Shown here in pieces: positions 2-22,091 of a DNA stretch of 64,000 bases. Numbering within the stretch: position 1 is the first letter of the stretch; each line of letters starts with the position of its first letter. This DNA is from Ferruginibacter sp. GTDB taxonomy: Bacteria > Bacteroidota > Bacteroidia > Chitinophagales > Chitinophagaceae. A program made the position numbers and the translations under genes. The stretch spans positions 4,608,859-4,672,858 of the forward strand of contig OZ251999.1 in the NCBI GenBank assembly GCA_965247085.1, read 5' to 3'. The notes under the pieces were generated by a model. The model was not told the origin of the DNA, made no database searches, and saw only the letters and a list, made by a program, of their open reading frames with translations.

Positions 2-1438
2 GGTAACAAACCTAATTTTGCGCAGCAGCAAATTGATAAATACAAAAACTTATATCAAACCATTACTGCCAAAATAAAAGCCCGTATCATCTTTTTTAAT
101 TTTAATGAAATGGATGATGCTGTTTTTGGCAATTTTGCCAATAAAACAGACGTGTCGTTTGTATATCAGCTGCGGAAGATCAACCTGGAGCTGATGCACC
201 TGGCCCAGCAGCTTAAAAATTTATTTATACTGGACATCAATTTATTGCAAAGCCGTTATGGCAACCAGTTCATCACCGACAATAAAATTTACATTAATAC
301 CGACCTGTTATTAAGTATTGACTTTTTGCCCATTATTGCAAAAGGAACACTGGATATTATACAATCTATCAGCGGTAAATTTAAAAAATGCCTGATACTT
401 GACCTGGACAATACCACCTGGGGCGGCATAATTGGTGATGATGGAGTGGAAAATATTCAAATTGGTGATTTGGGTATAGGAAAAGCTTTTTCTGAACTGC
501 AGTTGTGGGCCAAGCAATTAAAACAAAGAGGCATCATTTTGGCTATTTGCAGTAAAAATGATGAAGCCATTGCCAAAGAGCCCTTTGAAAAACATCCGGA
601 TATGATATTGAAGCTGGATGATATCGCTGTTTTTGTAGCCAACTGGAATAACAAAGCAGATAATATTAAGTACATACAAAGCATATTGAATATCGGGTTC
701 GATTCCATGGTTTTTTTAGATGACAATCCTTTTGAAAGGAATATGGTTAGAACAAATATTGCCGACATCACCATACCTGAACTGCCCGAAGACCCGGCAG
801 AATATTTAAATTATATCAGAACGCTGAATCTTTTTGAAACAGCTTCTTTTACCAATGAGGATGAACAACGCACCAAACAATACCAGGAAGAAGCCAACAG
901 GGCGGTTTTGCAACAGCAGTTCACCAATGAGAATGATTTTCTGCAAAGCCTGAACATGATTTCTGTGGTAGAAGCTTTCAACAAGTTCAATACACCAAGG
1001 GTTGCGCAGTTGTCGCAAAGATCTAACCAGTTCAACTTAAGAACGGTACGCTATACCGAAGAAGAAATTGCAACACTTGCAGGCGATCCGAAATACATAT
1101 CCCTGGCTTTTTCATTGGCTGATAAATATGGCGATTACGGACTGATCAGTCTTATAATGATGAAAGAAACACAGCCAGATACGCTTTTTATAGATACCTG
1201 GATCATGAGTTGCCGTGTATTAAAGCGCAATATGGAAAACTTTGTACTGAATACCATGGTTAGCATGGCCAAAGAAAAAGGCTATGGCTTTATAACCGGG
1301 GAGTATTTGCCAACGGCCAAAAACAGTATGGTAAAAGATCATTACCAGGGGCTGGGATTTGCAGCAGACGGCCCCTTATGGAAATTAAATGTAGCAGATT
1401 ATACCAACCGGGAATGTTATATAAAGAAAAGCATTTAA
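2..1438 (+). CDS. FkbH-like HAD-IIIC family enzyme (carrier-protein loading type); 5' end runs off the window
   Basis: The frame is open from nt 2 to the ATG at 110 with no stop, so the gene is probably 5'-truncated by the window. HAD motif I is LILDLDNTTWGG, with later ICSKN and FLDDNP motifs. An ACP gene follows directly. Confidence 0.75.
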   Translation, partial: GNKPNFAQQQIDKYKNLYQTITAKIKARIIFFNFNEMDDAVFGNFANKTDVSFVYQLRKINLELMHLAQQLKNLFILDINLLQSRYGNQFITDNKIYINTDLLLSIDFLPIIAKGTLDIIQSISGKFKKCLILDLDNTTWGGIIGDDGVENIQIGDLGIGKAFSELQLWAKQLKQRGIILAICSKNDEAIAKEPFEKHPDMILKLDDIAVFVANWNNKADNIKYIQSILNIGFDSMVFLDDNPFERNMVRTNIADITIPELPEDPAEYLNYIRTLNLFETASFTNEDEQRTKQYQEEANRAVLQQQFTNENDFLQSLNMISVVEAFNKFNTPRVAQLSQRSNQFNLRTVRYTEEEIATLAGDPKYISLAFSLADKYGDYGLISLIMMKETQPDTLFIDTWIMSCRVLKRNMENFVLNTMVSMAKEKGYGFITGEYLPTAKNSMVKDHYQGLGFAADGPLWKLNVADYTNRECYIKKSI

Positions 1439-1471
1439 AAATTTACTGAAAACATAAAACCAACAACAAAA

Positions 1472-1714
1472 ATGGAAGCAAATGAAATCATCAGCAACCT
1501 GAATACAGTGTTTAATGATGTGCTGGATAACGAAGACATCGTTTTAACAGCGGCCACCACAGCAAATGATATTGAAGAATGGGATTCTATATCACATATA
1601 CAACTGATAGTGGCAATAGAAAAGCATTTTAAAATACGTTTCAACGCATCAGAAATACGTACCTGGAAGAATGTAGGAGAAATGTGTGAATCAATAAAGA
1701 GTAAAATGGCATAA
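1472..1714 (+). CDS. Acyl carrier protein (ACP1)
   Basis: 80 aa and acidic. It has the phosphopantetheine attachment motif EEWDSISHIQL and starts 34 nt after the FkbH-like gene. Confidence 0.85.
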   Translation: MEANEIISNLNTVFNDVLDNEDIVLTAATTANDIEEWDSISHIQLIVAIEKHFKIRFNASEIRTWKNVGEMCESIKSKMA

Positions 1715-1827
1715 GTTTTACATCAGTAATAGTATAATAAAGAGTATGCCTTTATCCACACAGGGTACAGGTTACCACAACCGGAAAGGCAGCAATATTC
1801 TTTTTTGAAAATTAACTTAACAATGAT

Positions 1828-3285
1828 ATGATCTTTAATTCTATTAATTATTTTTTGTTTTTACTGATTGTATTTATAGTATATTATTTACTCCCTAATA
1901 AATTTCGCTGGGTGCTTTTACTGGCAGCCAGTATAGCATTTTATTTAATTGGCGGAGGGGCAAAAACTATTGCGGTACCCATCATCATTATTGTGGCTAC
2001 TTTTTTCTGTGGTAAACTGATAGAAAAAACCACAGATGCCAGGGCAAAGCGTTTGTATTACCTGTCGGGGTTACTCATCAATATCACGTTGCTGATGTTT
2101 TTTAAATACATCAACTTTTTTATTGAAACGGCACTGAATGTATTTGATTACTTTAAAAACCTGAATGCTACTGCTTCAACAGCCATGCACCAGGATCCTG
2201 TAGTGCTGCAGATCATTGTGCCATTGGGTATTTCTTATATCACTTTCCAGGCCATTGGCTATTTGATAGAAGTAAACAGGGGCAGCCTGCCTGCCGAAAA
2301 AAACCTGGGCTTGTTTGCCACCTACCTCATGTTTTTTCCAAAATTATTATCGGGGCCTATTGAACCGGCGCAAAACTTTCTTCCCCAGCTGTATAACAAC
2401 CACGATTTTGATTATACCCAGGTGGTAAAAGGATTGAAGCGCATCCTGTGGGGTCTTTTTTTAAAGTTGGTGGTGGCCAACCGCCTGGAACTGTATACCG
2501 AAGCGGTGTTTAACAATTACAACCATCACTCCGGTACCACCTTGCTGGTGGGCGCATTGTTTTATACCATGCAAATGTTTGCCGATTTTGCCGGCTATAC
2601 CGATATGGCCATTGGATCGGCACAGGTGCTGGGTTTTAAATTAATTGAAAACTTCAACACCCCGTTTATTGCCAAATCTGTTACGGAATTTTGGCGCCGG
2701 TGGCATATTTCACTCTCCTCCTGGGTGAATGAATATATTTATAATCCCATAGCAGTTAATTTACGCAGCTGGAACAAATGGGCAGTGGTAGTGGCTTGTA
2801 TGACCACATTTCTGATTCTCGGTTTTTGGCATGGCCCCAACTGGAACTATATTGTATTTGGTTTTTTGCAGGGCGTTATACTCACGATAGAACTGTTTAC
2901 CCGTAAAAGCCGCAAAAAACTACGGGGTAAAATACCGGCATGGCTGAATTCATTTGTTGGTGTAACGTTTACTTTTTTATATTTCTGTTTTTCGCTCATC
3001 ATTTTCAGGAACATTAACCTGCACAATGCCCTGCTGATAATAAAGAAAATATTTACGAACCGCGGAGCCATTTATTTTGAAAATCCATCGATGATGATCT
3101 TTTCTCTTTTTGGTATTGCCATGGTCATTGCTTTTGAAGTAAAAAGGGCCTATTACAACGACCGCTTTACTTTCTTTAATAATGGGAAATGGCTGGTTAG
3201 AAATTTATCCTATGCCGTATTGGTAATACTGATATTGCTGATAGGCGTTTTTGATGGCGGACAATTCATTTATTTTAAATTTTAA
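1828..3285 (+). CDS. MBOAT family membrane O-acyltransferase (DltB/AlgI-like), copy 1
   Basis: Polytopic, 485 aa. It has the MBOAT signatures FWRRWHISLSSW and LGFWHGPNW (conserved His) and is a paralog of 6760..8199. Confidence 0.9.
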   Translation: MIFNSINYFLFLLIVFIVYYLLPNKFRWVLLLAASIAFYLIGGGAKTIAVPIIIIVATFFCGKLIEKTTDARAKRLYYLSGLLINITLLMFFKYINFFIETALNVFDYFKNLNATASTAMHQDPVVLQIIVPLGISYITFQAIGYLIEVNRGSLPAEKNLGLFATYLMFFPKLLSGPIEPAQNFLPQLYNNHDFDYTQVVKGLKRILWGLFLKLVVANRLELYTEAVFNNYNHHSGTTLLVGALFYTMQMFADFAGYTDMAIGSAQVLGFKLIENFNTPFIAKSVTEFWRRWHISLSSWVNEYIYNPIAVNLRSWNKWAVVVACMTTFLILGFWHGPNWNYIVFGFLQGVILTIELFTRKSRKKLRGKIPAWLNSFVGVTFTFLYFCFSLIIFRNINLHNALLIIKKIFTNRGAIYFENPSMMIFSLFGIAMVIAFEVKRAYYNDRFTFFNNGKWLVRNLSYAVLVILILLIGVFDGGQFIYFKF

Positions 3286-3297
3286 AATATACTTTTT

Positions 3298-4269
3298 TTG
3301 ACACAGGCAATCATTAATAAAATTAAACAAAAGCCTTACCAGCTTTTTGTGGTAAAGCTGCTGGTTTTTATATCGCTGGTATACCTGCTTGATTTTACAG
3401 CAGGTAAGCTGTTGAAATATTTTTATTTTAAGCAGCAAAGCGGGCTGCAGTACCGTACCACGTACTCAATGGAACAAACCCGTGCCGATATCCTGGCATT
3501 TGGCGCCTCCAGGGCCAATCATCATTACCATGCCAGGGTTTTTGAAAGTGATATCCCCAACTATACATTTTACAATGCGGGCAGAGATGGTAATTCTATC
3601 TTTTATCATTATGCCGTACTGAAATCTATTTTACGAAGGTACTCGCCCAAAATTGTGATCCTCGATTTTGAAATTGGATCACTGGCTAAAAACAGTGAGA
3701 GTTATGACAGGCTCTCTTCTTTATTGCCTTATTACAACGATCACCCCGAAATTCGCTCTATTGTAAACCTTAAAAGTGCGTACGAAAAATTTAAATTGTA
3801 TTCTCATATATACCCGTTTAATTCGGCATTGTTTACCATTGCCATTGGAAATGTAGAGATGAATAAATCCAGGGCCAATGATATAAACGGATACGTTCCC
3901 CTGCACGGTATATGGGAAGAGCCCATTGGATACGATACCAATACAGTAAGTAAAAATATACTGGACAGTAACAAGATATCCTGTTACGAGAATTTTATAA
4001 AAGACTGCACCACACGCGGCATTAAAGTATGCATATTTGTGTCACCCTATTTTATCAAATATAAGAATGCTGATTATTCCGTATTAAAGGGACAGGAAAT
4101 TGCAAAGAAATACCATGCAGACTTTTATGACCATACCACCGATACCACATTTACTTCTAACCGGTTATTATTTGCCGACCTGGTGCATTTAAACGACAAT
4201 GGTGCAAAATTGTACAGTAAAATGGTAGTACAAAGTATTTTACAGCATAGATCGCCAGCGATACATTAA
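3298..4269 (+). CDS. Membrane-anchored DltD/AlgJ-like SGNH-fold protein, copy 1 (apparent TTG start)
   Basis: N-terminal TM segment, FGASRANH (G-x-S nucleophile context) and C-terminal DLVHLN (D-x-x-H). It is colinear with paralog 8206..9132. No in-frame ATG lies near the 5' end; the ORF opens on TTG at 3298. Confidence 0.7.
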   Translation: MTQAIINKIKQKPYQLFVVKLLVFISLVYLLDFTAGKLLKYFYFKQQSGLQYRTTYSMEQTRADILAFGASRANHHYHARVFESDIPNYTFYNAGRDGNSIFYHYAVLKSILRRYSPKIVILDFEIGSLAKNSESYDRLSSLLPYYNDHPEIRSIVNLKSAYEKFKLYSHIYPFNSALFTIAIGNVEMNKSRANDINGYVPLHGIWEEPIGYDTNTVSKNILDSNKISCYENFIKDCTTRGIKVCIFVSPYFIKYKNADYSVLKGQEIAKKYHADFYDHTTDTTFTSNRLLFADLVHLNDNGAKLYSKMVVQSILQHRSPAIH

Positions 4270-4352
4270 TAATAATTTGTCAATAAAATAAAAGGCCATT
4301 GCTTCCGTTAATACCCTTTAGTAAGGTATAATGTATTTTTTTTAACCGTATT

Positions 4353-5843
4353 ATGCAGTTATTCGTACAAATTCAAAACATAATTATAAAAAATGCGGAA
4401 AGTAATGCTTTTGTAATTAACTCCGTTACTTACAGTTACCAGCATTTTGCTTCTGCCATTTCAAGTATCCGAAAGGCTGTAGCGGCGCATACCCCCGAAA
4501 GCGAAAAAGTACTGGGCCTGGTTGCAAATGATGATATTGAAACTTATGCAGCCATTATTGCCCTGTGGCTGGAAGGGAAAGCCTATGTACCAATAGATCC
4601 GAACACACCCAGGGACCGTAATGAAAACATTATGCAACAGGCAGGGGTAAACACTATACTGGATTCATCAGATGAACCATTGCTTGCTCAATACCAGTGT
4701 ATAGCCAGCAAAACACTGCCCGATGCCGTAATTGACCTGGTACCCAAACAGGTAAGCGACGAAGAACTGGTATACATTTTATTTACCTCCGGCACTACAG
4801 GGGTACCCAAGGGTGTTCCCATTACCCGTGCCAATCTTACTGGTTTTGTTACTGCTTTTGATGCATTGGGATTTGATATAGATGCCAATGACAGGTGTTT
4901 ACAAATGTTTGATCTTACCTTCGACCTTTCAGTAATGTCTTACCTGGTGCCCATTCTTAAGGGCGCCTGTATCTATACCATACCCAAAAATTCCATTAAA
5001 TACTTATATATTTATGAATTAATGGAAGAACAGCGTATAACGGTTGCCCTGATGGTTCCTTCCATACTTCAAAACCTGCGCCCCTATTTTAATGAAATAA
5101 CGCTGAGCGATATGAAATATAGTTTGTTTTGCGGCGAAGCACTTCCGGCAGATGTAACGGCCGAATGGAGTGCCTGTGTGCCCAATGCCACTATATTGAA
5201 TGTATACGGTCCAACAGAAGACACTATTTTTTGCACACACTATACATATAACAAAACCGGCAGCAATAAAACCTACAACGGTTTGCTTTGTATTGGAAAA
5301 GCCATGCAGGGTTCCATTACGGTGATAGTAGATGAAAATAACCGGATACTGCCCCATGGTAATACCGGGGAACTCTGTTTGGGAGGTATTCAGCTTACCC
5401 CGGGTTACTGGAACAATGCCGAAAAGAACCTGGAAACTTTTTTCACTGCATGCTACCAGGGTAAAGAAGAACGTTTTTATAAAACCGGCGATCTGTGCAG
5501 GGTAGATGAAGCAGGCGACCTGCTGTATATTGGCAGGCTGGATTTTCAAATAAAAGTGCAGGGATTCAGGGTAGAGCTTTCTGAAATAGAATTTCATGCA
5601 AAATCGTACCTGAGTAAGGTCAACGCAGTGGCAGTTGCCAATACCAGCAGCGCAGGAAATACAGAGATTGGGCTGGTGATAGAATCTGCCTCTTTTGATA
5701 CCACAGCACTGAACAGCTACATGAAATCGAAAATGCCGGTGTATATGCTGCCCAAAAAAATACAGTTTGCGGCATCATTCCCTCTTAATAAAAACGGAAA
5801 AACAGACAGGAATAAATTGAGTGAACTATTTAAGGAAATATAA
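4353..5843 (+). CDS. DltA-like adenylate-forming enzyme (carrier-protein ligase)
   Basis: AMP-binding core motif LFTSGTTGVPKGV, YKTGDL and C-terminal NKNGKTDRNKL. At 496 aa it has stand-alone adenylation-domain size and no condensation domain. Confidence 0.85.
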   Translation: MQLFVQIQNIIIKNAESNAFVINSVTYSYQHFASAISSIRKAVAAHTPESEKVLGLVANDDIETYAAIIALWLEGKAYVPIDPNTPRDRNENIMQQAGVNTILDSSDEPLLAQYQCIASKTLPDAVIDLVPKQVSDEELVYILFTSGTTGVPKGVPITRANLTGFVTAFDALGFDIDANDRCLQMFDLTFDLSVMSYLVPILKGACIYTIPKNSIKYLYIYELMEEQRITVALMVPSILQNLRPYFNEITLSDMKYSLFCGEALPADVTAEWSACVPNATILNVYGPTEDTIFCTHYTYNKTGSNKTYNGLLCIGKAMQGSITVIVDENNRILPHGNTGELCLGGIQLTPGYWNNAEKNLETFFTACYQGKEERFYKTGDLCRVDEAGDLLYIGRLDFQIKVQGFRVELSEIEFHAKSYLSKVNAVAVANTSSAGNTEIGLVIESASFDTTALNSYMKSKMPVYMLPKKIQFAASFPLNKNGKTDRNKLSELFKEI

Positions 5844-5845
5844 TT

Positions 5846-6511
5846 ATGGCCGAATACAACATTAGACAGGCAGCAGAAAAAGACATCCCATTTTTGGCAA
5901 AGGCAATTATTGCAGCAGAAAAAGGAAGATCAGATAAACTTAGCTATGCCACATTATTTAATGTTACAGAACAAAGGGTACAGGAGCTGATGATACAGAT
6001 GCTGGAAGAAGACATTGATGGCTGCGAATTTTCGGTCAGCAGTTATTGTGTAGTGGACTATGAAGGAACCCCTGTAGCATCCTCTGCCAGCTGGATAGAA
6101 AATTTTGAAGGTAATATGCCATCGCCTATTCTGAAATCTAACCTGATATTACATACGTTTGATAATGACAGTATCGAATTTTTTAAAACACGGTCTCATA
6201 TTGTAAAGGATATTGTAATTGAAAGAGAACCCTTAAGCCTGCAGCTGGAATACCTGTATATTGCTCCTGATCATATAGGAAAGGGGCTGGATGGTATGAT
6301 GATAGGCAGGTGTATTGAAAATGCACTGGGTGTATATCCTGCATTGAAAAAAGTACAGGGTCAGCTGTTTAAAAACAGCATATTTGCTATTATTGCACTC
6401 CGGAAAATTGGCTTTACACTGGCCAGGTGCTGCAAAGCAGCGGATAGTGATATATTGAATTATATACCCTTTGATGAAAAAATATTAATGGAAAAATTAT
6501 TAAATGCATAA
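5846..6511 (+). CDS. GNAT-like N-acetyltransferase (tentative)
   Basis: LEYLYIAPDHIGKGLDGMMIG resembles GNAT motif A (Q/R-x-x-G-x-G/A). It is wedged between the adenylating enzyme and ACP2, with a 2-nt gap upstream and an 8-nt overlap downstream. Confidence 0.5.
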   Translation: MAEYNIRQAAEKDIPFLAKAIIAAEKGRSDKLSYATLFNVTEQRVQELMIQMLEEDIDGCEFSVSSYCVVDYEGTPVASSASWIENFEGNMPSPILKSNLILHTFDNDSIEFFKTRSHIVKDIVIEREPLSLQLEYLYIAPDHIGKGLDGMMIGRCIENALGVYPALKKVQGQLFKNSIFAIIALRKIGFTLARCCKAADSDILNYIPFDEKILMEKLLNA

Positions 6512-6755
6512 TGTAATGGAGCGGGAAGCAATTGTACAGAAACTGGAACCTGTTTTTAAAAAAGTATTTGGAGATACTGCTTTGGTAATACAAGATGAAT
6601 TAACGGCAAGGGATGTGGAAAATTGGGATTCCCTGTCGCACATGCTGCTGATTACCGAAGTAGAAAATGAATTTGCAATCAAGTTTAAATTAAAAGAGTT
6701 AAATAAAATGGTAAATGTTGGAGCGATGATAGCTATTATTCAATCCAAATTATAG
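6504..6755 (+). CDS. Acyl/peptidyl carrier protein (ACP2, DltC-like position)
   Basis: 83 aa with attachment motif ENWDSLSHMLL, located directly upstream of the second MBOAT. Confidence 0.85.
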   Translation: MHNVMEREAIVQKLEPVFKKVFGDTALVIQDELTARDVENWDSLSHMLLITEVENEFAIKFKLKELNKMVNVGAMIAIIQSKL

Positions 6756-6759
6756 CAGC

Positions 6760-8199
6760 ATGGTATTTACATCGCTCAATTTTCTGTTGTTTTTTCCATT
6801 ACTGGCAATCCTCTACTGGCTTACACCGGTTAAATATAAACTGTACCTGCTGCTGGTGGGCAGCTACTTTTTTTATATCAATGTAAAACCGGTATACGCC
6901 CTGCTACTGGCGGGTGTTACCCTGTCTACTTATTTTTTTACCAATCTAATTGCCGGTGCCCCCAACGAGTCACGCAAAAAAACATTCATGTGGATCAACA
7001 TAGTACTGATCCTGCTGCCCTTATTTTTCTTTAAATATTTTGGCACCATCAATGAAGGTATTTTTAAACTCCTGCAATCGGCCCATATCAGCTGGCCCCT
7101 ACCCGTTATTACATTACTGCTTCCCATCGGTATCTCTTTTTATACTTTTATGGCCATTGGATATACAGTTGATGTATACAATGAAGAAATAGAAGCTGAA
7201 AAAGACATTATACCCGTAGCCCTTTTTATTTCGTTTTTTCCCCTCATATTATCAGGCCCCATTGAGCGGGCCAAAAATATGCTGCCCCAGTTTAAACAAC
7301 TGAAGCCAGCAGATTACCACATGATAAAAACGGGACTAAAAATGATGCTGTGGGGTTATTTTATGAAACTGGTGGTAGCCGACAGGCTGGGAATTTATAT
7401 TGATGTTATTTACCAGAATATTCCACTGCATAACGGTACGTCTTTGTTGCTTGCCAGTTTACTGGTACCCTTTCAGATATATGCCGATCTGGGCGGTTAT
7501 TCACTAATTGCTGTAGGTACGGCAAGCATACTTGGCTTTACGGTAATGCAAAATTTTAACAGGCCATTTTTTGCCAGGTCAATGGCCGACCTGTGGCGGC
7601 GATGGCATATTTCGCTCATTACCTGGTTAACCGATTATGTATACACGCCCCTTACATTTATGTTCAGGAAATATAAACTGGCAGGTATTATTCTGGCGTT
7701 GATGATCACATTTTTATTAAGTGGTATCTGGCATGGTGCCGCACTTACTTTTGTTGTGTGGGGATTAATGCAGGGGGTATACTTAAGCATTGAAGCCTTA
7801 ACCAGCCGCAGGCGGATGCAATTTGAAAAAAAATACAATACCGGTAAAAAAGGCGGGTACATTTTTTTACAGATACTGCTTGTATTTATTTTATTTACCG
7901 CATCTCAAATAGTGGGCAGGGCCGAAAGTGTACCTGCAGCCTGCGAAGTGTTCCGTAAAATTTTTACCGCAACAGGGCCGCTCTTCATTGGTGAAGCTCC
8001 CTCAATTTTAATTTACAGCTTTTTTGGCCTGTTGCTGCTACTTTGTAAAGATGGCCTGGATGAATTTGCACCCACAAAATGTTTATTATTCGAAAATAAA
8101 AATAAGTTTATCAGGGTGATGGCCTATTCCACCATCATCATTTTGATTTTACTGATCGGTGTTTTTGACGGAAGCCAGTTCCTGTATTTTAAATTTTAA
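6760..8199 (+). CDS. MBOAT family membrane O-acyltransferase (DltB/AlgI-like), copy 2
   Basis: LWRRWHISLITW and SGIWHGAAL motifs. Both copies end in LIGVFDG(G/S)QF(I/L)YFKF. Confidence 0.9.
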   Translation: MVFTSLNFLLFFPLLAILYWLTPVKYKLYLLLVGSYFFYINVKPVYALLLAGVTLSTYFFTNLIAGAPNESRKKTFMWINIVLILLPLFFFKYFGTINEGIFKLLQSAHISWPLPVITLLLPIGISFYTFMAIGYTVDVYNEEIEAEKDIIPVALFISFFPLILSGPIERAKNMLPQFKQLKPADYHMIKTGLKMMLWGYFMKLVVADRLGIYIDVIYQNIPLHNGTSLLLASLLVPFQIYADLGGYSLIAVGTASILGFTVMQNFNRPFFARSMADLWRRWHISLITWLTDYVYTPLTFMFRKYKLAGIILALMITFLLSGIWHGAALTFVVWGLMQGVYLSIEALTSRRRMQFEKKYNTGKKGGYIFLQILLVFILFTASQIVGRAESVPAACEVFRKIFTATGPLFIGEAPSILIYSFFGLLLLLCKDGLDEFAPTKCLLFENKNKFIRVMAYSTIIILILLIGVFDGSQFLYFKF

Positions 8200-8205
8200 A
8201 CGGAC

Positions 8206-9132
8206 ATGTTTAAAAAATTAATTTTCAATATTGCAATAGTAGCGGGTGTGGTTTTCATACTCGACCAGGTAATTGGCCGAACCCTGAGGCATTTTTATTT
8301 TAAAGAATCATCGGGCCTGCATTACCGCACTACCTATTCGATGGACAGTACCAGGGCCGAAGTACTGGTTTTTGGTGCCTCCAGGGCCAACCACAGTTAT
8401 GTACCCGAAATATTTGAAGATTCACTGAAAAAAACTTTTTATAATACTGGAAGGGATGGCAATGGTATTTTTTACCAAACGGCATTACTGGAAACCGTTA
8501 TAAAAAGATATATTCCTGCAATCATCATTCTGGAATTTTCCGGCTTCGAAAAAAACCAGGTGGGCTTTGATAAAGTAGCATCGCTGTTACCCTATTACCG
8601 AACCAAGCCGGATATCAGGAAGATAGTTGACGGAGAAGAACCAATGGAAAAGATAAAGCTGCTGTCGGAAATTTACCCTTTCAATTCGCAGGCGCTTACC
8701 ATTGCCGTGGGAAATTTAGACCTGAACAAAAAAAGAACCTACAGCGACAAAGGTTATGTGCCTTTATATGGCGAATGGCCCCACCAACTCAATTCTAATA
8801 AAGGAACCGCTGTTCATGAAACAGACTCCAATAAGGTGAATGCATTCAAAGAATTTATTGCCACCACAAAAAAGACAGGTATTCAGCTGTATGTGGTAAG
8901 CTCGCCGGTTTTTCAAAATCAAAGCAATACAGCAGGAATAGATATTTGCAGAAAAATTTGCCAGCAGGAGCAGGTACCACTCATCAATTTACAAAACGAC
9001 GCCTATTTTTTAAACCATAAAAATTTGTTTAAAGATATTCTGCACCTGAATCATAACGGGGCCATCGAATTCTCTAAAATAATTGCCGGCCGCATCCTTC
9101 ATTTTAATACGAATGGAAGCACTGGAAACTAG
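8206..9132 (+). CDS. Membrane-anchored DltD/AlgJ-like SGNH-fold protein, copy 2
   Basis: N-terminal TM segment, FGASRANHSY and DILHLNHNGA. It shares the YRTTYSM and EIYPFNS blocks with 3298..4269. Confidence 0.7.
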   Translation: MFKKLIFNIAIVAGVVFILDQVIGRTLRHFYFKESSGLHYRTTYSMDSTRAEVLVFGASRANHSYVPEIFEDSLKKTFYNTGRDGNGIFYQTALLETVIKRYIPAIIILEFSGFEKNQVGFDKVASLLPYYRTKPDIRKIVDGEEPMEKIKLLSEIYPFNSQALTIAVGNLDLNKKRTYSDKGYVPLYGEWPHQLNSNKGTAVHETDSNKVNAFKEFIATTKKTGIQLYVVSSPVFQNQSNTAGIDICRKICQQEQVPLINLQNDAYFLNHKNLFKDILHLNHNGAIEFSKIIAGRILHFNTNGSTGN

Positions 9133-9229: not shown

Positions 9230-10213
9230 ATGAGCGAAAAGAAATTGTTTTCAAAAGATATTCTTCAAATAGAAGATATCGCTGCAGTGGCAGACCATAT
9301 AGTAACTAAATTAAAGCAGGATGTTTCTTTTCAGCTTAAAAGAAAAGGCGCTATCGTGGGTATCAGCGGTGGAATTGATTCATCGGTGAGCCTGGCACTG
9401 GCCGTAAAAGCACTGGGAGCAGCCAACGTTCTGGGTATCATGATGCCTGAAAAAGATTCCAGTGGCGACAGTAAAATGCTGGCCCTGCAACTGGCTCAAA
9501 AATTTGGGGTGCAAACCCTGGAAGAAAATATTACTGATGCATTGAATGGCTTTGGCTGCTACCAGCGAAGGGACGAAGCTGTAAAAAGGGTTTTCCCCGA
9601 ATACAACCCCGGCTTGTATAAAATGAAAATTGGCGTCAATGCCAAAAGCATTAACAGCAACCTGCCTCCTGCATTTTCAGTTACCATTATTGACGGCACC
9701 GGGGCAGAGCAAAGTAAATTATTGCCCGCCAGTGAATACCTGCAAATTGTTTCGGCATCCAATTTTAAACAACGCTGCCGTATGTCGGTACTGTATTACC
9801 ATGCCGACCGTTTGTATTATGCCGTAATTGGTACGCCCAATAAACACGAAGTGGAACAGGGCTTTTTTGTTAAACATGGCGATGGAGCTGCAGATGTTAT
9901 GCCTATTGCACATTTATATAAAACGCAGGTGTACCAGCTGGCAGCCTATTTAGGTATCCCGGATGAGATCATCCAGCGCCCTCCAACCACCGATACCTAT
10001 TCTGCCGAACAAACCCAGGAAGAATTTTTCTTTCAGCTGCCCTTTAAACAAATGGACCTGATATGGTATGGTTACGAAAACGGCATCGACCCGCTGGAAG
10101 TAGGCCGCGAGCTGGGCAAAACTGCCGATGAGATAAGCGCCATCTATAAAAATTTTGTTCGTAAACAGAAGGCTACCGAATATTTAAGAATGGCACCTGT
10201 TAAGGACTACTAA
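9230..10213 (+). CDS. NAD+ synthetase-like PP-loop ATP pyrophosphatase (NadE family)
   Basis: PP-loop GISGGIDSSVSLALA, at a length typical of NH3-dependent NadE-like enzymes. Its role in this locus is uncertain. Confidence 0.7.
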   Translation: MSEKKLFSKDILQIEDIAAVADHIVTKLKQDVSFQLKRKGAIVGISGGIDSSVSLALAVKALGAANVLGIMMPEKDSSGDSKMLALQLAQKFGVQTLEENITDALNGFGCYQRRDEAVKRVFPEYNPGLYKMKIGVNAKSINSNLPPAFSVTIIDGTGAEQSKLLPASEYLQIVSASNFKQRCRMSVLYYHADRLYYAVIGTPNKHEVEQGFFVKHGDGAADVMPIAHLYKTQVYQLAAYLGIPDEIIQRPPTTDTYSAEQTQEEFFFQLPFKQMDLIWYGYENGIDPLEVGRELGKTADEISAIYKNFVRKQKATEYLRMAPVKDY

Positions 10214-10301: not shown

Positions 10302-11867
10302 ATGACCGCGATTCCACAACGTTTATTAGGAGAAGGATTACTGATTGCCGCAAAAAAAAATCCATCTAAAACTGCAGTGGTCATTAAGGATAAAACATTT
10401 TCTTATCATCAGCTGCAGGAAGGGGCACTAAAACTGGCGGCACATTTAATTCAGTCAGGCATACAAAAAGGAGACCGGGTTGCTATTTACATGAGCAATT
10501 CCTGGGAAAGTGTACTGGCGGTATACGGAGCTGCATTGTCAGGTGCCGTATTCCTGTTTATCAATCCGCAAACCAAGGCCAATAAGCTGCAATATATTTT
10601 AAATGACTGCGGTGCAAAAATACTGATTGCAGAAACTGCCTTAAGTAATGATATTACTGCCGCCCTGGAAGATGCCCCCACCATACAGCAACTGCTCATT
10701 GCAGGCAATGCTGATACAATTGTACTGCAGCCGGGTGTTCAGTTGGTTAGTTTTGAGTCGGTAATTTTAGCCGCCACCTGCAAGGTGAACTTTCCGGTTA
10801 TTATCCCTACCGATCTGGCATCATTAATTTATACATCGGGCAGCACCGGCTTTCCCAAAGGTGTGATGATGACTCACCAGTCGATGGTATTCACCTCCTG
10901 GAGCCTCATAGAATATTTAAGACTTACCGATGAAGAGCGCATCATGTTATTGTTGCCCCTGGCATTTGATTACGGTTTGTACCAGTTATTAATGACCATT
11001 ACGGTGGGCGGCACTTTAATTGTAGAAAAAGGATTTGTGTTTCCGGCTTCTGTATATAAGCAGATAATAATACAGCAACCAACGGTATTACCTGCAGTGC
11101 CCACTATTTTTGCAATGATGATAGCATCCAATAAAGAAACAGGATTGCAGTTTGACTTTGTAAAAAAAATAACCAATACCGCCGCGGCATTACCCGCCGA
11201 ATTCATACCCGATCTGAAAAAGATATTTCCCAATGCACTTATTTTTAAGATGTATGGTTTAACAGAATGTAAAAGGGTGTGCTATCTTGAACCTGAGTTG
11301 GTAGATATCAAGCCCAGCTCGGTAGGCAGGGCCATCCCGGGTACAGAAGTATTTTTGTTATCACCAGATGGTAAGCCTGTTGCAACCAATGAGCCGGGAA
11401 TTTTACACATCCGCGGGCCGCATGTTATGGCCGGCTACTGGAATAAGGAACAATTGACCAACGAAATGCTGAAACCCGGAAAAATTCCCGGCGAAAGAAT
11501 ATTGTGTTCCAACGACTGGTTTAAAATGGATGAAGATGGCTGCCTTTATTTCCAGGGAAGAAATGATGATATTATAAAAACCAGGGGTGAAAAAGTAAGC
11601 CCGGTAGAAATAGAGAATATTATTTATAAAATACCGGGCGTAAAAGAAGTGGCTGTAATTGGTGTAACGGATGCCATTATGGGCCAGTCCATAGCCGCAT
11701 TTATTACCTGCCACAACAATGTGCAGCTGAACGAAAAAGACATTCAAAAAGAATGCATGGCCCACCTGGAATCTTTTATGATTCCGCAAAAAGTAACTTT
11801 TTTGCAGGAGATGCCAAAAAGTTCGAACGGGAAAATTGATAAAAAAGAACTTGTAAAAAATAATTGA
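10302..11867 (+). CDS. AMP-forming acyl-CoA/acyl-carrier ligase
   Basis: YTSGSTGFPKGVMMTH, WFKMDEDG and C-terminal SSNGKIDKKEL. Confidence 0.85.
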   Translation: MTAIPQRLLGEGLLIAAKKNPSKTAVVIKDKTFSYHQLQEGALKLAAHLIQSGIQKGDRVAIYMSNSWESVLAVYGAALSGAVFLFINPQTKANKLQYILNDCGAKILIAETALSNDITAALEDAPTIQQLLIAGNADTIVLQPGVQLVSFESVILAATCKVNFPVIIPTDLASLIYTSGSTGFPKGVMMTHQSMVFTSWSLIEYLRLTDEERIMLLLPLAFDYGLYQLLMTITVGGTLIVEKGFVFPASVYKQIIIQQPTVLPAVPTIFAMMIASNKETGLQFDFVKKITNTAAALPAEFIPDLKKIFPNALIFKMYGLTECKRVCYLEPELVDIKPSSVGRAIPGTEVFLLSPDGKPVATNEPGILHIRGPHVMAGYWNKEQLTNEMLKPGKIPGERILCSNDWFKMDEDGCLYFQGRNDDIIKTRGEKVSPVEIENIIYKIPGVKEVAVIGVTDAIMGQSIAAFITCHNNVQLNEKDIQKECMAHLESFMIPQKVTFLQEMPKSSNGKIDKKELVKNN

Positions 11868-12289
11868 TGCAGCTTGCAAAACCAGACATATGCGCCCGAT
11901 TCAAAACCTGGTTAATAGCCTGGGATGAATATGATCTGGAGACTGTAATGGACTGGATGCATGAAGAAGTGGTATTTGAAAACTGGGATGGATTGACTGT
12001 GAACGGAAAAGCAGCCTTGCAAAAAATATGGACACCCTGGTTCATTTTTAACGGCAACTTCAAATTCATTAGTGAGGCAGAGGTAGTAGATGAAGCAGCG
12101 CAACAAATAGCTTTCCAATGGCGCTATGAAGGGCCGTCATTTGAAAAGGAGTATAAGGGAAAACAGGAGATCCGCCGCGGTACTGATATCATCAGTTTAC
12201 TGGAGGGGAAAATTGTAAGAAAAACCTCTTATTCTAAAACCTGCATTCAAATAGAAGCGCAGCCATTGATACTGGGAGTTAAAAAATGA
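11864..12289 (+). CDS. SnoaL/NTF2-like small protein (tentative)
   Basis: 141 aa with ATGA overlaps on both sides, so translationally coupled. Its size and W/F-rich alpha+beta pattern are compatible with the NTF2-like fold. No catalytic motif was recognised. Confidence 0.45.
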   Translation: MMQLAKPDICARFKTWLIAWDEYDLETVMDWMHEEVVFENWDGLTVNGKAALQKIWTPWFIFNGNFKFISEAEVVDEAAQQIAFQWRYEGPSFEKEYKGKQEIRRGTDIISLLEGKIVRKTSYSKTCIQIEAQPLILGVKK

Positions 12290-13215
12290 TTTATAAGACG
12301 TTACATTGCATGGAACAAAAAAAAATATACGAAGATCTTTTAGCATTGCTTAAAAAGGATTTGAGTATCCTGCCCGATAAGCAGGAAGAAAATGCTGAAA
12401 ATACATTGGCCGCTTTATGGCATACAGCAGCGGGTAACCGCGTTTCGCCCATTGCAGCAGAAAAATTACCATCATTGCCCGGGTTACAATCCGAACAGGT
12501 AGATCTGCTGCGGGAATTTATTCAAACCCGGCTTTCGGGTGTGCCGCTGGCGCACTTAACAGAACGGCAGGATTTTATGGGGCTGGATTACATATTGAAC
12601 AAAGGCTTGTACATTCCCCGTAAAGAAACGGAGTTGCTGGCTCAAACCGCTATTGATACCATTGCCAAAGATTTTGCTGCCGAAAAAGAAGCCATAGTGA
12701 TCGATCTGTGTACCGGAATTGGTACTGTGGCACTGGCCATTGCACATTATTGTACTAATACCAGGGTATTTGGTTCTGATATTTATACACCTGCCATAGA
12801 AGCCGCGGCAGTAAATGCACAGCATTTTGCACTGCAAAACAGGGCTGCCTTTTTTAATGCAGATATGTTTACCCCTTTTGAATCACTGTCATTAAAAGAT
12901 ACAGTAAGCGTAATAGTAAGTGCACCACCCTACATCTCGTCGGCAAAAGTTAAGAACATGGCGGATGAGATCGCTTCTCATGAACCGGAAGAAGCATTTG
13001 ACGCCGGTCCCTTCGGACTGTCTATTTTCACCATTCTGATTGCAACAGCACCCCAATACCTGTTGGTAAACGGGTACCTGATTTTTGAATGCGGATTAGG
13101 ACAGGGCGATTTTCTTGCCAAACGTATTGAAGCCAACCCTCAATATGGAAAAGTAGAAAAATTTTGTGATGCCCATGGCAATGTGAGAGTACTAAAAGCA
13201 AAACGAATTAATTAA
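12286..13215 (+). CDS. HemK/PrmC-like class I SAM methyltransferase with non-canonical SAPPY motif
   Basis: SAM motif I IDLCTGIGTVALA. Motif IV reads IVSAPPYI where HemK-type enzymes have NPPY. Confidence 0.65.
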   Translation: MIYKTLHCMEQKKIYEDLLALLKKDLSILPDKQEENAENTLAALWHTAAGNRVSPIAAEKLPSLPGLQSEQVDLLREFIQTRLSGVPLAHLTERQDFMGLDYILNKGLYIPRKETELLAQTAIDTIAKDFAAEKEAIVIDLCTGIGTVALAIAHYCTNTRVFGSDIYTPAIEAAAVNAQHFALQNRAAFFNADMFTPFESLSLKDTVSVIVSAPPYISSAKVKNMADEIASHEPEEAFDAGPFGLSIFTILIATAPQYLLVNGYLIFECGLGQGDFLAKRIEANPQYGKVEKFCDAHGNVRVLKAKRIN

Positions 13216-13271: not shown

Positions 13272-13523
13272 ATGGAAAATTCAACGGCCACAAAAGAACA
13301 AATACGTCAGTTTATCATTGAAACCACTTTTGCACCTGCACCGGATGTACAGGATGATACCCTGATTTTTGTGCAGGGGTTCTTTGATTCGATGGGATTT
13401 TTATTGCTCATCAGTTTCATTGAAGAAAAATTTGGCGTTAAAACTGATGATTCAGAATTACTGGAAGAGAATTTTGAATCAATTAATGCCATTGCCAGTT
13501 TTATTGAACGCAAACAAAAATAG
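13272..13523 (+). CDS. Carrier protein (ACP3)
   Basis: 83 aa with GFFDSMGFLLLISFIEEKF (D-S-x attachment context), placed between the methyltransferase and the AsnB-like gene. Confidence 0.75.
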   Translation: MENSTATKEQIRQFIIETTFAPAPDVQDDTLIFVQGFFDSMGFLLLISFIEEKFGVKTDDSELLEENFESINAIASFIERKQK

Positions 13524-13532: not shown

Positions 13533-15509
13533 ATGTGTGGTATAGCCGGAATTTATAAGTATCGCCCGGATGATCAGCAGTCCAATGAGCACAGCGTTAA
13601 AAAAATGCTGTCGGCCATTCGTCACCGCGGTCCCGATGAAACAGGTATTTACAGGAATGACCATTTTTGTATGGGCAGCGTGCGCCTGAGCATTGTAGAT
13701 ATTGCCAGCGGGCAGCAACCTGTTTGTGATGATACCGGCAATTACTGGATTGTATACAACGGAGAGATCTTTAATTTTCCTGAGTTAAAAAAACTAATTG
13801 AAGAAAAGGGCATACAATTAAAAACCAATTGCGATACCGAAGTACTGGTGCAATTATACGCACTTTTTGGAGCCGCCTGCCTTTCCTATTTAAATGGGCA
13901 GTTTGCGTTTTGTATCTGGGATAAAACAAAACAGGAAATGTTCCTTGCCCGCGACAGGGTAGGCATCAGGCCCCTGTTTTACTGGGCCCGGCAGGGTGCT
14001 TTTGCATTTTGCTCCGAAATAAAAGGCTTGTTTACACTGGATAAGATTGAGAAAAAGATCAGTGCCGAAAGCCTGGCGCAGGTATTTACTTTTTGGACAA
14101 CCCTTACACCCAATACCCCTTTCGAAAATATTTACGAACTGTCTCCGGGCCATTGTATGACAGTTAAAAGCACCGGTATTACCATTACAAAATACTGGAG
14201 TCTTCAGTTTCAGGATACAAGATATCCCAATACACAACATTTTGATACAGCCCTGGAAGGGTTGACTGCATTACTGCAGGATGCCACCAGTATCCGGCTG
14301 AGGGCGGATGTGCCTGTAGCTGCATATTTAAGCGGCGGTCTCGACTCCAGTGTAACTACCAGTATCATTAACAGCATCAACCCCGGCAACCTGCAAACTT
14401 TTTCCATTGGGTTTAAGGATAAAGAATTTGACGAAACCAAATACCAGCAGGAAGCGGCAGCATATTTTAATACACAGCATACGGCATTTGAATGTACCGC
14501 GGCAGAAATAGCCGAACAGTTTGCCACCACTATCTGGCATACCGAGTTCCCAATTTTACGAACCTCGCCAACACCGATGTACCTGCTTTCTAAAAAAGTA
14601 AGGGAGCATAATATTAAAGTGGTGGTTACCGGCGAAGGAGCAGATGAGGTACTGGCCGGTTATAATATTTTTAAGGAAGCCAAGATCAGGCGTTTTTGGG
14701 CCAATCAGCCTGACTCTGCCGTAAGGCCAAAACTGTTGTCTAAACTGTATCCCTACATCCCCATGATACAGGGCTCTAATAACCTCGCGTTAAAAATGTT
14801 TTTTGGTTTTAAGCTAAATGAAACCAGTGATCCGCTGTATTCTCATTTGTTGCGCTGGCACAATACCTCCCGTATCAAAACATATTTTTCCGATGATATA
14901 ACACGGGCATTAGATCAGTACCAGCCTGTAGAACAGGTATACGGTCAACTACCCGAAAATTTTAAAAACTGGAGTGGGCTTGCGCAGTCGCAATACCTGG
15001 AATCTTCCATCTTTATGTCGGGTTATCTGCTTTCTTCGCAGGGCGACCGCATGGCCATGGCCAACTCTGTGGAAGGACGCTATCCTTTTTTAGATTACCG
15101 GGTAATAGAATTTTGTGCCGGACTGCCCGACAGTTTTAAGCTTAATTGCCTGGATGAAAAATTCATACTCAAAAAACTGAGTCGCGGACGGATACCGGAA
15201 TCAATTACTAAAAGACCCAAGCAGGCTTACCGGGCTCCCATTGCCAGCAGTTTTTTTCATGCAGGTGCGCCAGCCTATATTGAGGAAATATTATCAGAAG
15301 AAAAATTACAAGCCTTTGGTTTATTCAACCCGCAAAAAGTAAAAACGCTGATAGCGAAAATGAAGAACCAGCAAAACATTTCAGAAATGGATCAAATGGC
15401 CATTGCAGCAATATTATCTACCCAGTTACTGCAGCAAATGTTTATTACCAACCCGGTGGCTACCAATGTAGAAGAACTGGCCAATTTAAAAGTAGTTATA
15501 GAAAATTAA
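13533..15509 (+). CDS. Asparagine synthetase B-family glutamine amidotransferase
   Basis: N-terminal nucleophile MCGIAGIY, PP-loop YLSGGLDSSV, 658 aa. Confidence 0.9.
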   Translation: MCGIAGIYKYRPDDQQSNEHSVKKMLSAIRHRGPDETGIYRNDHFCMGSVRLSIVDIASGQQPVCDDTGNYWIVYNGEIFNFPELKKLIEEKGIQLKTNCDTEVLVQLYALFGAACLSYLNGQFAFCIWDKTKQEMFLARDRVGIRPLFYWARQGAFAFCSEIKGLFTLDKIEKKISAESLAQVFTFWTTLTPNTPFENIYELSPGHCMTVKSTGITITKYWSLQFQDTRYPNTQHFDTALEGLTALLQDATSIRLRADVPVAAYLSGGLDSSVTTSIINSINPGNLQTFSIGFKDKEFDETKYQQEAAAYFNTQHTAFECTAAEIAEQFATTIWHTEFPILRTSPTPMYLLSKKVREHNIKVVVTGEGADEVLAGYNIFKEAKIRRFWANQPDSAVRPKLLSKLYPYIPMIQGSNNLALKMFFGFKLNETSDPLYSHLLRWHNTSRIKTYFSDDITRALDQYQPVEQVYGQLPENFKNWSGLAQSQYLESSIFMSGYLLSSQGDRMAMANSVEGRYPFLDYRVIEFCAGLPDSFKLNCLDEKFILKKLSRGRIPESITKRPKQAYRAPIASSFFHAGAPAYIEEILSEEKLQAFGLFNPQKVKTLIAKMKNQQNISEMDQMAIAAILSTQLLQQMFITNPVATNVEELANLKVVIEN

Positions 15510-15582: not shown

Positions 15583-15618
15583 AAAAAAGGAGTTGATATT
15601 CATCAACTCCTTTTTTTA
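15583..15618. terminator. Bidirectional rho-independent terminator between convergent operons
   Basis: Perfect 11-bp stem AAGGAGTTGAT/ATCAACTCCTT with loop ATTC, an A-run upstream and a T-run downstream. Confidence 0.7.
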
Positions 15619-19894: not shown

Positions 19895-20515
19895 TTATTT
19901 TTTTCTGGGCTGCCTTCTTTTTTTCCATTTTTTTAATCCAATGATGCTAAGTAGCAGTAAAAGAATACAGTACATACTAAGCACCAGGTAGTGCTCTGTA
20001 AAATAAATTGGAATGGCAGCTGCGGTGGCTGCAATGTACCAATACCAGGCTTCAACTTTTTTGGTGGCCAGTAACCAGGTAGCCGTAAAAGCGCTTGCCA
20101 AAACAAAGGCATCGGCCCAGGGTATACGGCCTGCTGCAAAATAAGATCTGAGGTACTGAAGCGTTATACCAAGCAGCAGGTAGCAGGTGCCAAAAAAGGC
20201 AAGCTGCAACAGTTGGCTTTGTTGCGATGAGGCGGTAACACGTATGATGCGGTGCTTTTTCCGGTCCCTTTTTTTCCATTGCAGCCAGCCATAGATACAA
20301 ACGGTAAGATAACAGAGGTCAATCATGATTTCTCCGGGCAATTCTTTATCCAGGCCCAGAAATATATGGATGGCAATGCAGATCCATGCAATAGGATAAA
20401 CATAAATATTTTCTTTATAGCTCAGAAAAAAACAGGCGATCACTGCAAGCAGCAATATGGGCTCAATCAGGTCGTACCCTTTCAATTCGTAATACAGGGG
20501 CCTGATGATATTCAT
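19895..20515 (-). other. PnuC-like (nicotinamide riboside transporter family) 7-TM segment with its own in-frame ATG
   Basis: MNIIRPLYYE... starts at 20515. There are seven hydrophobic segments, with CIYGWLQWKKR, PWADAF..SAFTATWLLATKKVEAWYWYI and a basic KKWKKRRQPRKK tail. This pattern resembles the PnuC family. Confidence 0.65.
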
Positions 20516-21958: not shown

Positions 21959-22091
21959 GATAAATTTTTCAGCGCCTGTTTTAGGGTAATAACAAAATAC
22001 CCAACGAAGATACTGAATCCTGAAAAAGACAGGCAGCAATTTGAAGCGAATAATTACAAGTGCTGCAGTAGTTGAAGGTGCATTACAAGTT

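Follow-up and report, generated by a model that had tools for sequence, protein, structure and literature searches.

We analysed a 64,000-nt stretch of DNA from Ferruginibacter sp. (contig OZ251999.1 of assembly GCA_965247085.1, positions 4,608,859-4,672,858 of the forward strand; hereafter the window). Its first nine genes encode two sets of an acyl-loading enzyme, an acyl carrier protein (ACP), a membrane-bound O-acyltransferase (MBOAT), plus a membrane-anchored protein with an SGNH fold. We propose that these genes form two modular MBOAT-SGNH systems, each fed by a carrier protein, which esterify a periplasmic or otherwise extracytoplasmic glycan, module 1 (2..4269) with a glyceryl group and module 2 (4353..9132) with a small, possibly N-acylated, amino acid, and we put the probability of this reading at roughly 0.6. 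Our observations cover the identities of the genes, their conserved catalytic residues, the predicted folds, synteny, and neighbourhoods that recur, and from them we infer which donors are used, in which direction the groups move, what the two groups are chemically, and what accepts them.

The nine genes are co-directional on the + strand in the order FkbH, ACP1, MBOAT1, anchored protein 1, ligase, GNAT, ACP2, MBOAT2, and anchored protein 2, and the intergenic distances are, in order, 33, 113, 12, 83, 2, -8, 4, and 6 nt. Stop and start codons are closely coupled in module 2 from the ligase through anchored protein 2 (the last four distances). The measured range, -8 to 113 nt, agrees with the gene order and spacing (an 8-nt overlap to about 110 nt) given in the initial annotation of this DNA. 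Gene-for-gene synteny at 52-81% amino-acid identity is found in two Ferruginibacter metagenome-assembled genomes (MAGs) and one Chitinophagales MAG (L012, L047, and L015; L with a number denotes a locus used for comparison), so the arrangement is not due to chance. The paralogues within the window share only 36% (MBOAT), 39% (ACP), and 41% (SGNH partner) identity, which suggests that they are old or were acquired independently and do not stem from a recent duplication. The initial annotation had raised the prospect that the second module is a frameshifted duplicate in decay; we rejected this, given the divergence of the paralogues, the conservation of both copies in other genomes, and the lack of frameshifts. 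The operon extends past 9132 with six further co-directional genes up to 15509, and a terminator-like hairpin (15583..15616, +; a 15-bp stem and then a T run) lies 3' of the last of them, as the sole strong + strand intergenic terminator-like site within positions 1-16000. A sigma-70 promoter scan, which does not cover Bacteroidota promoters, was uninformative, with 53 sites against 48 expected. The Bacteroidota host that had been proposed is supported by a type IX secretion system (T9SS) sorting domain, an UpxY antiterminator, and closest relatives in Ferruginibacter and Chitinophagales.

Module 1 begins with an FkbH-family loader (2..1438, +) that has BF1531-like N-terminal, HAD-IIIC, and C-terminal domains. 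The frame is open from base 2 and runs off the 5' edge of the window; its relatives are 575-580 aa long, so about 100 residues are missing from the window copy. The protein passes the TIGR01686 model (296.6 bits, cut-off 146.65, model positions 3-321 of 323) and also matches PF21211, and its N-terminal and HAD parts match Bacteroides fragilis BF1531 (PDB 3slr_A, E 8.6e-114). The HAD motif DLDNT occupies residues 134-138, and the C-terminal domain carries S403-C404-R405, whose conserved cysteine we take to be catalytic. In an alignment, D134, D136, T138, S403-C404-R405, and other HAD residues are invariant in 78 of 78 relatives. The call of an FkbH-type loader is thus borne out, and the catalytic-type residues whose loss would have spoken against it are in place. 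The BF1531-type subfamily has at least 8000 homologues with generic names only; the database names for the proteins are 'HAD-IIIC family phosphatase', 'FkbH-like protein', or 'hypothetical'. The loader is followed by ACP1 (1472..1714, +; 80 aa), which has Ser39 in a DSISH motif and scores 26.2 bits with PF00550 against a cut-off of 20.8. Enzymes of the FkbH family convert 1,3-bisphosphoglycerate to glyceryl-ACP in polyketide and tetronate supply (PMC7489565).

Module 2 begins with a stand-alone amino-acid adenylation ligase of the DltA/AlmE type (4353..5843, +), with FDLSVM at 190-195, LFCGE at 258-262, and Lys483. It scores 316.6 bits with the nonribosomal peptide synthetase (NRPS)-type adenylation model TIGR01733 (cut-off 317.4) and misses the DltA equivalogs TIGR01734 and NF003417 (275.5 and 295.6 bits versus 559.85 and 476). 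The pocket region matches Vibrio cholerae AlmE best (4oxi_A, E 1e-19) and DltA next (3dhv/3fcc), and FDLSVM and LFCGE are common to the ligase, AlmE, and DltA (3dhv). We take the pocket aspartate to bind the substrate amino group, and the pocket cysteine to correspond to the residue by which DltA admits only very small side chains. The ligase, called DltA-type in the initial annotation, is an amino-acid adenylation enzyme as described there. The next gene (5846..6511, +) is translationally coupled to the ligase and ACP2 genes and encodes a 221-aa acyltransferase with a GNAT fold. The window protein has no direct Pfam or NCBIfam match, but its homologues at no more than 55% identity carry PF00583, PF13508, and PF13673, and its family profile matches the GNAT structures YpeA, PaiA, and SpeG. 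With the AlphaFold2 model (pLDDT 95.1), Foldseek matched 603 PDB chains at E<=1e-3, of which the 50 listed belong to GNAT-family acetyltransferases. The label 'GNAT-like' therefore holds for fold and homologues, though not for a direct family match. ACP2 (6504..6755, +; 83 aa, Ser43 in DSLSH) matches ACP models weakly.

Both MBOATs pass the PF03062 cut-off of 27 bits, MBOAT1 (1828..3285, +; 485 aa, catalytic His335 in WHG) with 77.5 bits and MBOAT2 (6760..8199, +; 479 aa, His325) with 83.6 bits. As initially noted, they share WRRWHISL (289-296 and 279-286) and WHG (334-336 and 324-326) at matching paralogue positions. DltB is the best solved match of both proteins; for MBOAT1 the structures are 8jem and 6bug (E 6.5e-32, with GFWHG aligned), and the WHG histidine aligns with the catalytic histidine of DltB. 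Both miss the DltB equivalog TIGR04091 (195.1 and 155.8 bits versus a cut-off of 375), and in both, about 85 aa that contain two hydrophobic segments extend C-terminally past the part aligned with DltB. Each extension ends in an FxYxxF motif, the bioinformatics of which reportedly originated with Schultz et al. in 2023: FIYFKF in MBOAT1 (3265..3282, +; Tyr482) and FLYFKF in MBOAT2 (8179..8196, +; Tyr476). This 'acyl shuttle' lies on the separate microprotein DltX in Dlt systems and is fused C-terminally in PatA, AlgI, and related MBOATs, where it sits on two extra helices, and its tyrosine carries the acyl group from the MBOAT histidine to the serine of the SGNH partner (PMC12148441; Anderson et al., 2025). 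There is no space for a separate DltX gene in the 4-12 nt gaps, and the motif is fused to both MBOATs, which thus are PatA/AlgI-type in architecture and not DltB plus DltX. We rejected a true dlt operon as an explanation, as all Dlt equivalog models are missed and DltX is not present. Each fused-shuttle MBOAT nevertheless comes with a dedicated loader and carrier protein in the manner of Dlt, which makes the two systems hybrids of a PatA-type architecture with a Dlt-like set of supply genes.

The MBOAT genes are followed by anchored partner 1 (3298..4269, +; 323 aa, with an N-terminal helix) and anchored partner 2 (8206..9132, +; 308 aa, with Ser59, Asp277, and His280). As had been pointed out, both carry FGASRANH (68-75 and 56-63) and D-x-x-HLN (DLVHLN and DILHLN). 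Ser71, Gly95, Asn175, Asp294, and His297 of partner 1 are invariant in a family alignment that includes both partners, and they correspond to the four SGNH blocks. The AlphaFold2 model of the anchored protein (pLDDT 91.3) shows a long N-terminal helix and an alpha/beta domain, and Foldseek ranks DltD structures first in the PDB (6o93, 6pfx, 3bma, and 7dxm; E 2.7e-5 to 6e-4) and PatB 28th. This fold assignment comes from the model because a profile search of the family against the PDB gave nothing meaningful (best E 0.55). In Pfam, neither window protein matches DltD (PF04914), which only three of 35 family members match weakly; the only match of the pair is a below-threshold one of partner 1 to DUF1574 (PF07611; 18.2 bits versus 29.1, E 1.7e-3). 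DUF1574, listed as an uncharacterised SGNH-clan family without a structure (PMC9487903), is weakly matched by 14 of the 35 members (best E 1.5e-6). By sequence, the family lies between GDSL_2, DUF1574, and DltD and is a member of none; it is not PatB (DUF459), AlgX, or DHHW, and its nearest families are GDSL_2 and DUF1574. This unnamed family comprises 9219 representatives of 50% clusters at E<=1e-3. The earlier label 'DltD-like' thus stands for the fold, with DltD structures as the best solved matches, but not for the sequence family. Likewise, of the two parallel conduits that had been envisaged, the two modules, loaders, and carriers remain, whereas the MBOATs are of the PatA/AlgI type and the partners fall outside the DltD family. 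An MBOAT and anchored-SGNH pair 54-55% identical to window partner 1 is encoded at 8564..10948 of L008/L009, beside a DpnI-type restriction-modification system and gyrB, and is indexed in 347 blocks of the collection.

An FkbH scan of species-representative genomes gave 80 loci, and the 62 with at least 4 kb of downstream sequence were used for counts. The loci come from Bacteroidota, Leptospiraceae, Planctomycetota, Verrucomicrobiota, Omnitrophota, Desulfobacterota-like lineages, Alpha- and Gammaproteobacteria, and Acidobacteriota, and the FkbH-ACP-MBOAT-anchored SGNH arrangement occurs in at least eight phyla. An ACP adjoins FkbH in 52 of the 62 loci, and an MBOAT lies downstream on the same strand in 33 and elsewhere in the locus in 14 more. 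Fifty-three of 60 complete MBOATs in FkbH loci end exactly in FxYxxF. An open reading frame of at least 150 aa, in most cases 300-360 aa, lies 3' of 48 of 65 MBOATs; the family profile detects 28 of these 48 proteins, and the remainder match no Pfam family. Nine distant MBOAT-adjacent partners, to which a Pfam scan assigned no family, have an N-terminal anchor and G-x-S, and most have D-x-x-H.

Tailoring genes are often found between FkbH/ACP and the MBOAT: a Glyoxalase_4 gene (methylmalonyl-CoA-epimerase-like), a MaoC hotdog gene with an SDR gene, or a gene for a protein of about 300 aa. One would expect such a placement if the MBOAT receives the acyl group bound to the ACP, and it fits editing of that group before hand-over. 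The window and L012 have no tailoring gene between ACP1 and MBOAT1, where the gap is only about 115 nt, and this suggests an unmodified glyceryl unit. A gene for a Glyoxalase_4/VOC epimerase-like protein of about 130 aa lies between ACP1 and MBOAT1 in L015 (9713..10105) and L047 (11694..12095). Its presence in two of the three closest syntenic relatives suggests that the delivered acyl group may differ even between close relatives.

We also scanned metagenomes with the GNAT profile, which gave 80 loci, of which 47 served as the denominator upstream and 40 downstream. The ligase is directly upstream of the GNAT homologue in 33 of 47, an ACP is directly downstream in 35 of 40, and an MBOAT comes next in 29 of 40; the ligase-GNAT-ACP-MBOAT order recurs in dozens of metagenome contigs. 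The five-gene module 2 stands alone in L093 and elsewhere lies inside glycan loci. In L095, module 2 and the operon tail are found without an FkbH module upstream, with 59-84% identity across the block from the first ligase to AsnB, and in Flaviramulus (L065) both modules occur in reversed order and without the GNAT. These observations show that both module types are recurrent cassettes able to occur apart. Cultured carriers include Mucilaginibacter corticis, Pseudoflavitalea, and Flaviramulus multivorans, and Bacteroides has the cassette too. Two variants of module 2 were seen in the same scan. L104 (7330..13314) encodes a ligase, an Fmt-like formyltransferase, an ACP, a GNAT, an ACP, an MBOAT, and an anchored partner behind two GT1 glycosyltransferase genes and an Asn-synthase gene, which suggests N-formylation of the carrier-bound aminoacyl group. 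In L162 (2285..9700), L143, L156, and L159, an FkbH and/or ACP1-like gene lies immediately 5' of ligase-GNAT-ACP-MBOAT; two loaders appear to share one MBOAT on such contigs, which might yield an N-glyceroyl-aminoacyl group.

The window opens within FkbH, and contigs matching its own upstream sequence extend no more than 3.8 kb, so the upstream context was taken from relatives. Immediately upstream in a syntenic Ferruginibacter locus are genes for a Bac_transf priming sugar-phosphate transferase, an NAD-dependent epimerase/dehydratase, an amine oxidase, and a polysaccharide deacetylase, and the block continues with a UDP-GlcNAc 2-epimerase, a methyltransferase, a GT2 glycosyltransferase, and a PMT_2 GT-C enzyme. 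Other loci that bear the modules hold Wzx, Wza-like, GT1, GT8, EpsG, NeuB, and UDP-glucose dehydrogenase genes. An undecaprenyl-linked or periplasmic glycan is the likely acceptor, because of this upstream block and the glycan genes around the modules elsewhere.

In the proposed mechanism, both modules would follow a common plan, from a loader to a dedicated carrier protein, an MBOAT with a fused tyrosine shuttle, a membrane-anchored SGNH transferase, and finally the glycan. In module 1, FkbH would dephosphorylate 1,3-bisphosphoglycerate with its HAD domain and hand the glyceryl group via Cys404 to holo-ACP1, and glyceryl-S-ACP1 would dock at the cytoplasmic face of MBOAT1. His335 would then move the acyl group to Tyr482 of FIYFKF on the periplasmic side, where Ser71 of the anchored SGNH protein (triad Ser71/Asp294/His297) would accept it and esterify a glycan hydroxyl. 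In module 2, the ligase would adenylate a small amino acid of the size of glycine or D-alanine and load it onto ACP2, the GNAT would N-acylate the carrier-bound aminoacyl group, and MBOAT2 (His325, Tyr476) and its SGNH partner (Ser59) would export and attach the product. The steps after the carrier protein are modelled on the PatA and Dlt mechanisms (PMC12148441).

The remainder of the operon comprises, all on the + strand, genes for an NAD-synthase-family amidoligase (9230..10213), a second adenylating ligase (10302..11867), a SnoaL_2 protein (11864..12289), a HemK-family methyltransferase (12286..13215), ACP3 (13272..13523), and an Asn-synthase-type amidotransferase (13533..15509). The best PDB matches of the second ligase are the amino-acid-loading enzymes 3wvn and 7dq5, and all six genes were assigned by family matches. 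The tail adds to this operon a third loader and carrier-protein branch that lacks an MBOAT, and it is kept behind module 2 in L006, L012, L015, L047, and L095. A HemK-type methyltransferase and two amidoligases might, speculatively, produce an amidated, N-methylated side chain.

The tail raises the alternative that it forms one pathway with module 2. Ligase 2 would load an amino or dicarboxylic acid on ACP3, the Asn-synthase-, NAD-synthase-, and HemK-type enzymes would amidate and N-methylate it, the GNAT would use acyl-S-ACP3 instead of acetyl-CoA to N-acylate aminoacyl-S-ACP2, and MBOAT2 would export a dipeptide-like N-acyl-aminoacyl group. Conservation of the block in L095 independently of the FkbH module is in line with this scheme, as are the joining of module 2 to a NadE-like gene in L174 and the arrangement in L096-L101, where the tail (NadE-ligase-ACP3-AsnB) directly follows the GNAT and the locus lacks both ACP2 and an MBOAT. 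Two tandem GNATs are present in L099, L100, and L103, two carrier proteins flank the GNAT in L104-L112, and the L162-type contigs described above place an ACP1-like gene just 5' of module 2. In addition, ACP3 lacks its own transferase in the operon, ligase 2 is similar to stand-alone enzymes that charge free ACPs with amino acids, and the top fold matches of the GNAT include 8zt4 (SbzI-SbzG), a GNAT solved with a carrier protein. However, the SbzI match is one of hundreds of GNAT matches and has a low TM-score (0.49). Most GNAT loci (GNAT identity no more than 55%) have no NadE, ACP3, or AsnB nearby, which makes acetyl-CoA the simpler donor there. We therefore regard a single pathway as possible but doubtful, and as the strongest of the alternatives.

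Several observations weigh against the proposal of two carrier-protein-fed glycan acylation systems, and most of them bear on the donor. The carrier-protein dependence of the MBOATs is suggested by gene adjacency, and the fused FxYxxF architecture has so far been tied to acetyl-CoA donors (PMC12148441). In a neighbour-joining tree of 68 MBOATs, rough and without support values, FkbH-linked, ligase-linked, and ACP-less enzymes are not separated and ACP-less enzymes are placed among ACP-linked ones, so the donor type is not readable from MBOAT phylogeny at this resolution. MBOAT-partner pairs like that of L008/L009 are common, have no ACP or loader within 10 kb, and likewise end in FxYxxF in their MBOAT. 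Either the donor type of MBOATs switches easily or they use acetyl-CoA throughout. Moreover, 15 of the 62 FkbH loci are without any MBOAT, so FkbH-ACP can feed other acceptors; the two annotated loci of this kind (L042 and L049) are still glycan loci, in which GT8, EpsG, GT1, NeuB, and Wzx genes occur. The Foldseek TM-scores of the anchored protein to DltD are low (0.33-0.41), with generic SGNH esterases nearly equal. Since the DltA model cut-offs are missed, the ligase substrate is bounded only to small amino acids, and the upstream glycan genes are observed in relatives, outside the window.

Part of this evidence favours a second alternative, in which the MBOAT/SGNH pairs are ordinary acetyl-CoA O-acetyltransferases of the PatA/PatB or AlgI/AlgJ kind and the carriers and loaders make substituents for attachment by other, cytoplasmic enzymes. 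The architecture, with its fused motif and two extra C-terminal helices, is that of PatA/AlgI, near-identical ACP-less pairs exist and are intermixed with ACP-linked ones in the tree, and FkbH-ACP without an MBOAT is found in nonulosonic-acid and other glycan loci. However, the FkbH-ACP-MBOAT order is kept across those eight or more phyla with tailoring genes inserted between the ACP and the MBOAT, ACP2 and MBOAT2 are only 4 nt apart, and neither module has another acyltransferase to consume acyl-ACP1, or aminoacyl-ACP2 after the GNAT step. It would be difficult to account for two adjacent acetyl systems with one ACP each, and we consider this alternative improbable.

A third alternative retains the machinery of the two systems but replaces the glycan with a lipid (lipid A) or with a secreted or lipid-anchored protein (T9SS cargo) as the acceptor. 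T9SS cargo genes adjoin the operon on the opposite strand in the window, L092, and L096, and AlmEFG, whose AlmE the ligase resembles, provides a Gram-negative precedent for carrier-protein-fed aminoacylation of lipid A. However, the modules lie in glycan-synthesis loci of many genomes, with priming transferases, glycosyltransferases, Wzx, Wza-like, EpsG, and NeuB genes, and all characterised bacterial MBOAT-SGNH pairs act on glycopolymers, so that such an acceptor seems very unlikely. Although all characterised FkbH enzymes act in polyketide or tetronate pathways (PMC7489565), a small-molecule cluster (tetronate, polyketide, or non-ribosomal peptide) in which FkbH supplies a glyceryl-ACP building block can practically be discounted, as the neighbours are glycan genes and membrane acyltransferases and no ketosynthase, FabH-like, condensation, or thioesterase domain was found beside the modules in the window and 160 related loci (surveyed by similarity to window proteins, only a few of them Pfam-annotated).

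A gene for a 1271-aa T9SS cargo protein (15675..19490, -) converges on the end of the acylation operon; the protein has seven near-identical K319L-like PKD repeats, a Por_Secre_tail domain, and an N-terminal domain in common with a neighbouring PnuC fusion. L096 has a large convergent gene (1617 aa) at the equivalent position. The fusion (19895..22039, -; 714 aa) combines a secreted N-terminal domain, very similar to the N-terminus of the T9SS protein, with a C-terminal PnuC-like nicotinamide-riboside transporter domain (PF04973, E 1.6e-31, residues 524-706). Its gene lies directly downstream of a gene for an UpxY-family antiterminator (22092..22631), and an NAD-synthase-family gene is present in the facing operon. 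Two successive sets of a LuxR-type response regulator, a histidine kinase, and a multi-pass membrane protein are encoded at 23009..27780 (-), and a further hybrid sensor is encoded at 36786..39773.

According to the literature, the use of a carrier protein is confined to the Dlt pathway, and all other MBOAT-SGNH systems take acetyl from acetyl-CoA (PMC12148441). If the two modules work as we propose, this generalisation is wrong. Full-text literature searches gave no paper that connects an MBOAT-SGNH pair with FkbH or with a carrier protein from outside Dlt, in keeping with the initial statement that an FkbH-fed route of this kind is uncharacterised. The proposed carrier-fed MBOAT-SGNH route is widespread and unstudied. 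Under our proposal, the substituents that Gram-negative bacteria add to extracytoplasmic glycans would comprise, besides acetate, glyceroyl, possibly lactyl, and (N-acyl)aminoacyl esters, and the BF1531-type FkbH proteins, the large anchored SGNH family, and probably DUF1574 would gain roles. Ester groups change surface charge and could alter phage and immune recognition in gut and environmental Bacteroidota. More tentatively, Gram-negative bacteria may possess a general plug-in platform that passes any carrier-built acyl group through a PatA-type MBOAT and its SGNH partner onto a surface glycan, an extension that we think rather unlikely. If it were true, the groups would include glycerate units from FkbH, aminoacyl units from DltA/AlmE-type ligases, and dipeptide-like units from a GNAT-catalysed condensation of two carrier-bound substrates; the main role of the BF1531-type FkbH family would be glycan glyceroylation and not polyketide supply, and module 2 with the tail would be an NRPS-free assembly line for an amidated, N-methylated N-acyl-aminoacyl ester.

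Finally, we compared the two modules with known systems. Like FkbH, OzmB, and the tetronate loaders, the window loader matches TIGR01686, has the HAD DxDxT motif and the conserved cysteine, and is encoded alongside a stand-alone ACP (PMC7489565); unlike them, it neighbours an MBOAT and no polyketide synthase or FabH-like consumer, and it has an extra BF1531-type N-terminal domain of about 190 aa. An FkbH-domain gene, cj1302, is also present in the flagellar glycosylation locus of Campylobacter jejuni (PMC7099621). As an FkbH-domain gene in a glycan-modification locus it recalls the FkbH-ACP pair beside NeuB in L049, but it has no MBOAT. To our knowledge, cj1302 has no demonstrated function, and acylation at this locus, if any, would be N-linked and take place in the cytoplasm. 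AlmEFG aminoacylates lipid A from a carrier protein in Gram-negative bacteria and so shares with module 2 a stand-alone ligase and a carrier protein, with AlmE (4oxi) as the best pocket match. The transferases differ, because AlmG is an LpxL-type acyltransferase that acts on lipid A at the cytoplasmic face, whereas that of the window is an MBOAT with an SGNH protein.

The closest comparisons are with the Dlt and PatA/AlgI systems. Dlt and the window systems share an adenylating ligase, a dedicated carrier protein, an MBOAT with a catalytic histidine, and a membrane-anchored SGNH-fold transferase, and ACP1 and ACP2 are encoded directly upstream of their MBOATs. In contrast to Dlt, the window has no DltX, its proteins miss the DltA, DltB, and DltD family models, a GNAT stands between ligase and carrier protein, module 1 has FkbH in place of a ligase, and the host is Gram-negative, with no teichoic acid. 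With PatA/PatB, AlgI/AlgJ/AlgX, WssH/WssI, and PatA1/PatB1, the window pairs share MBOAT C-terminal helices that end in FxYxxF and an anchored partner with the SGNH Ser-His-Asp residues, and those systems have a glycopolymer acceptor (PMC12148441), as we propose here. They use acetyl-CoA and no carrier protein (PMC12148441), whereas each window MBOAT is preceded by an ACP and a loader. The window pairs thus fit the PatA-type structural definition with the exception of the donor, and the context argues against an acyl-CoA donor without a carrier, because dedicated ACPs and loaders are adjacent.

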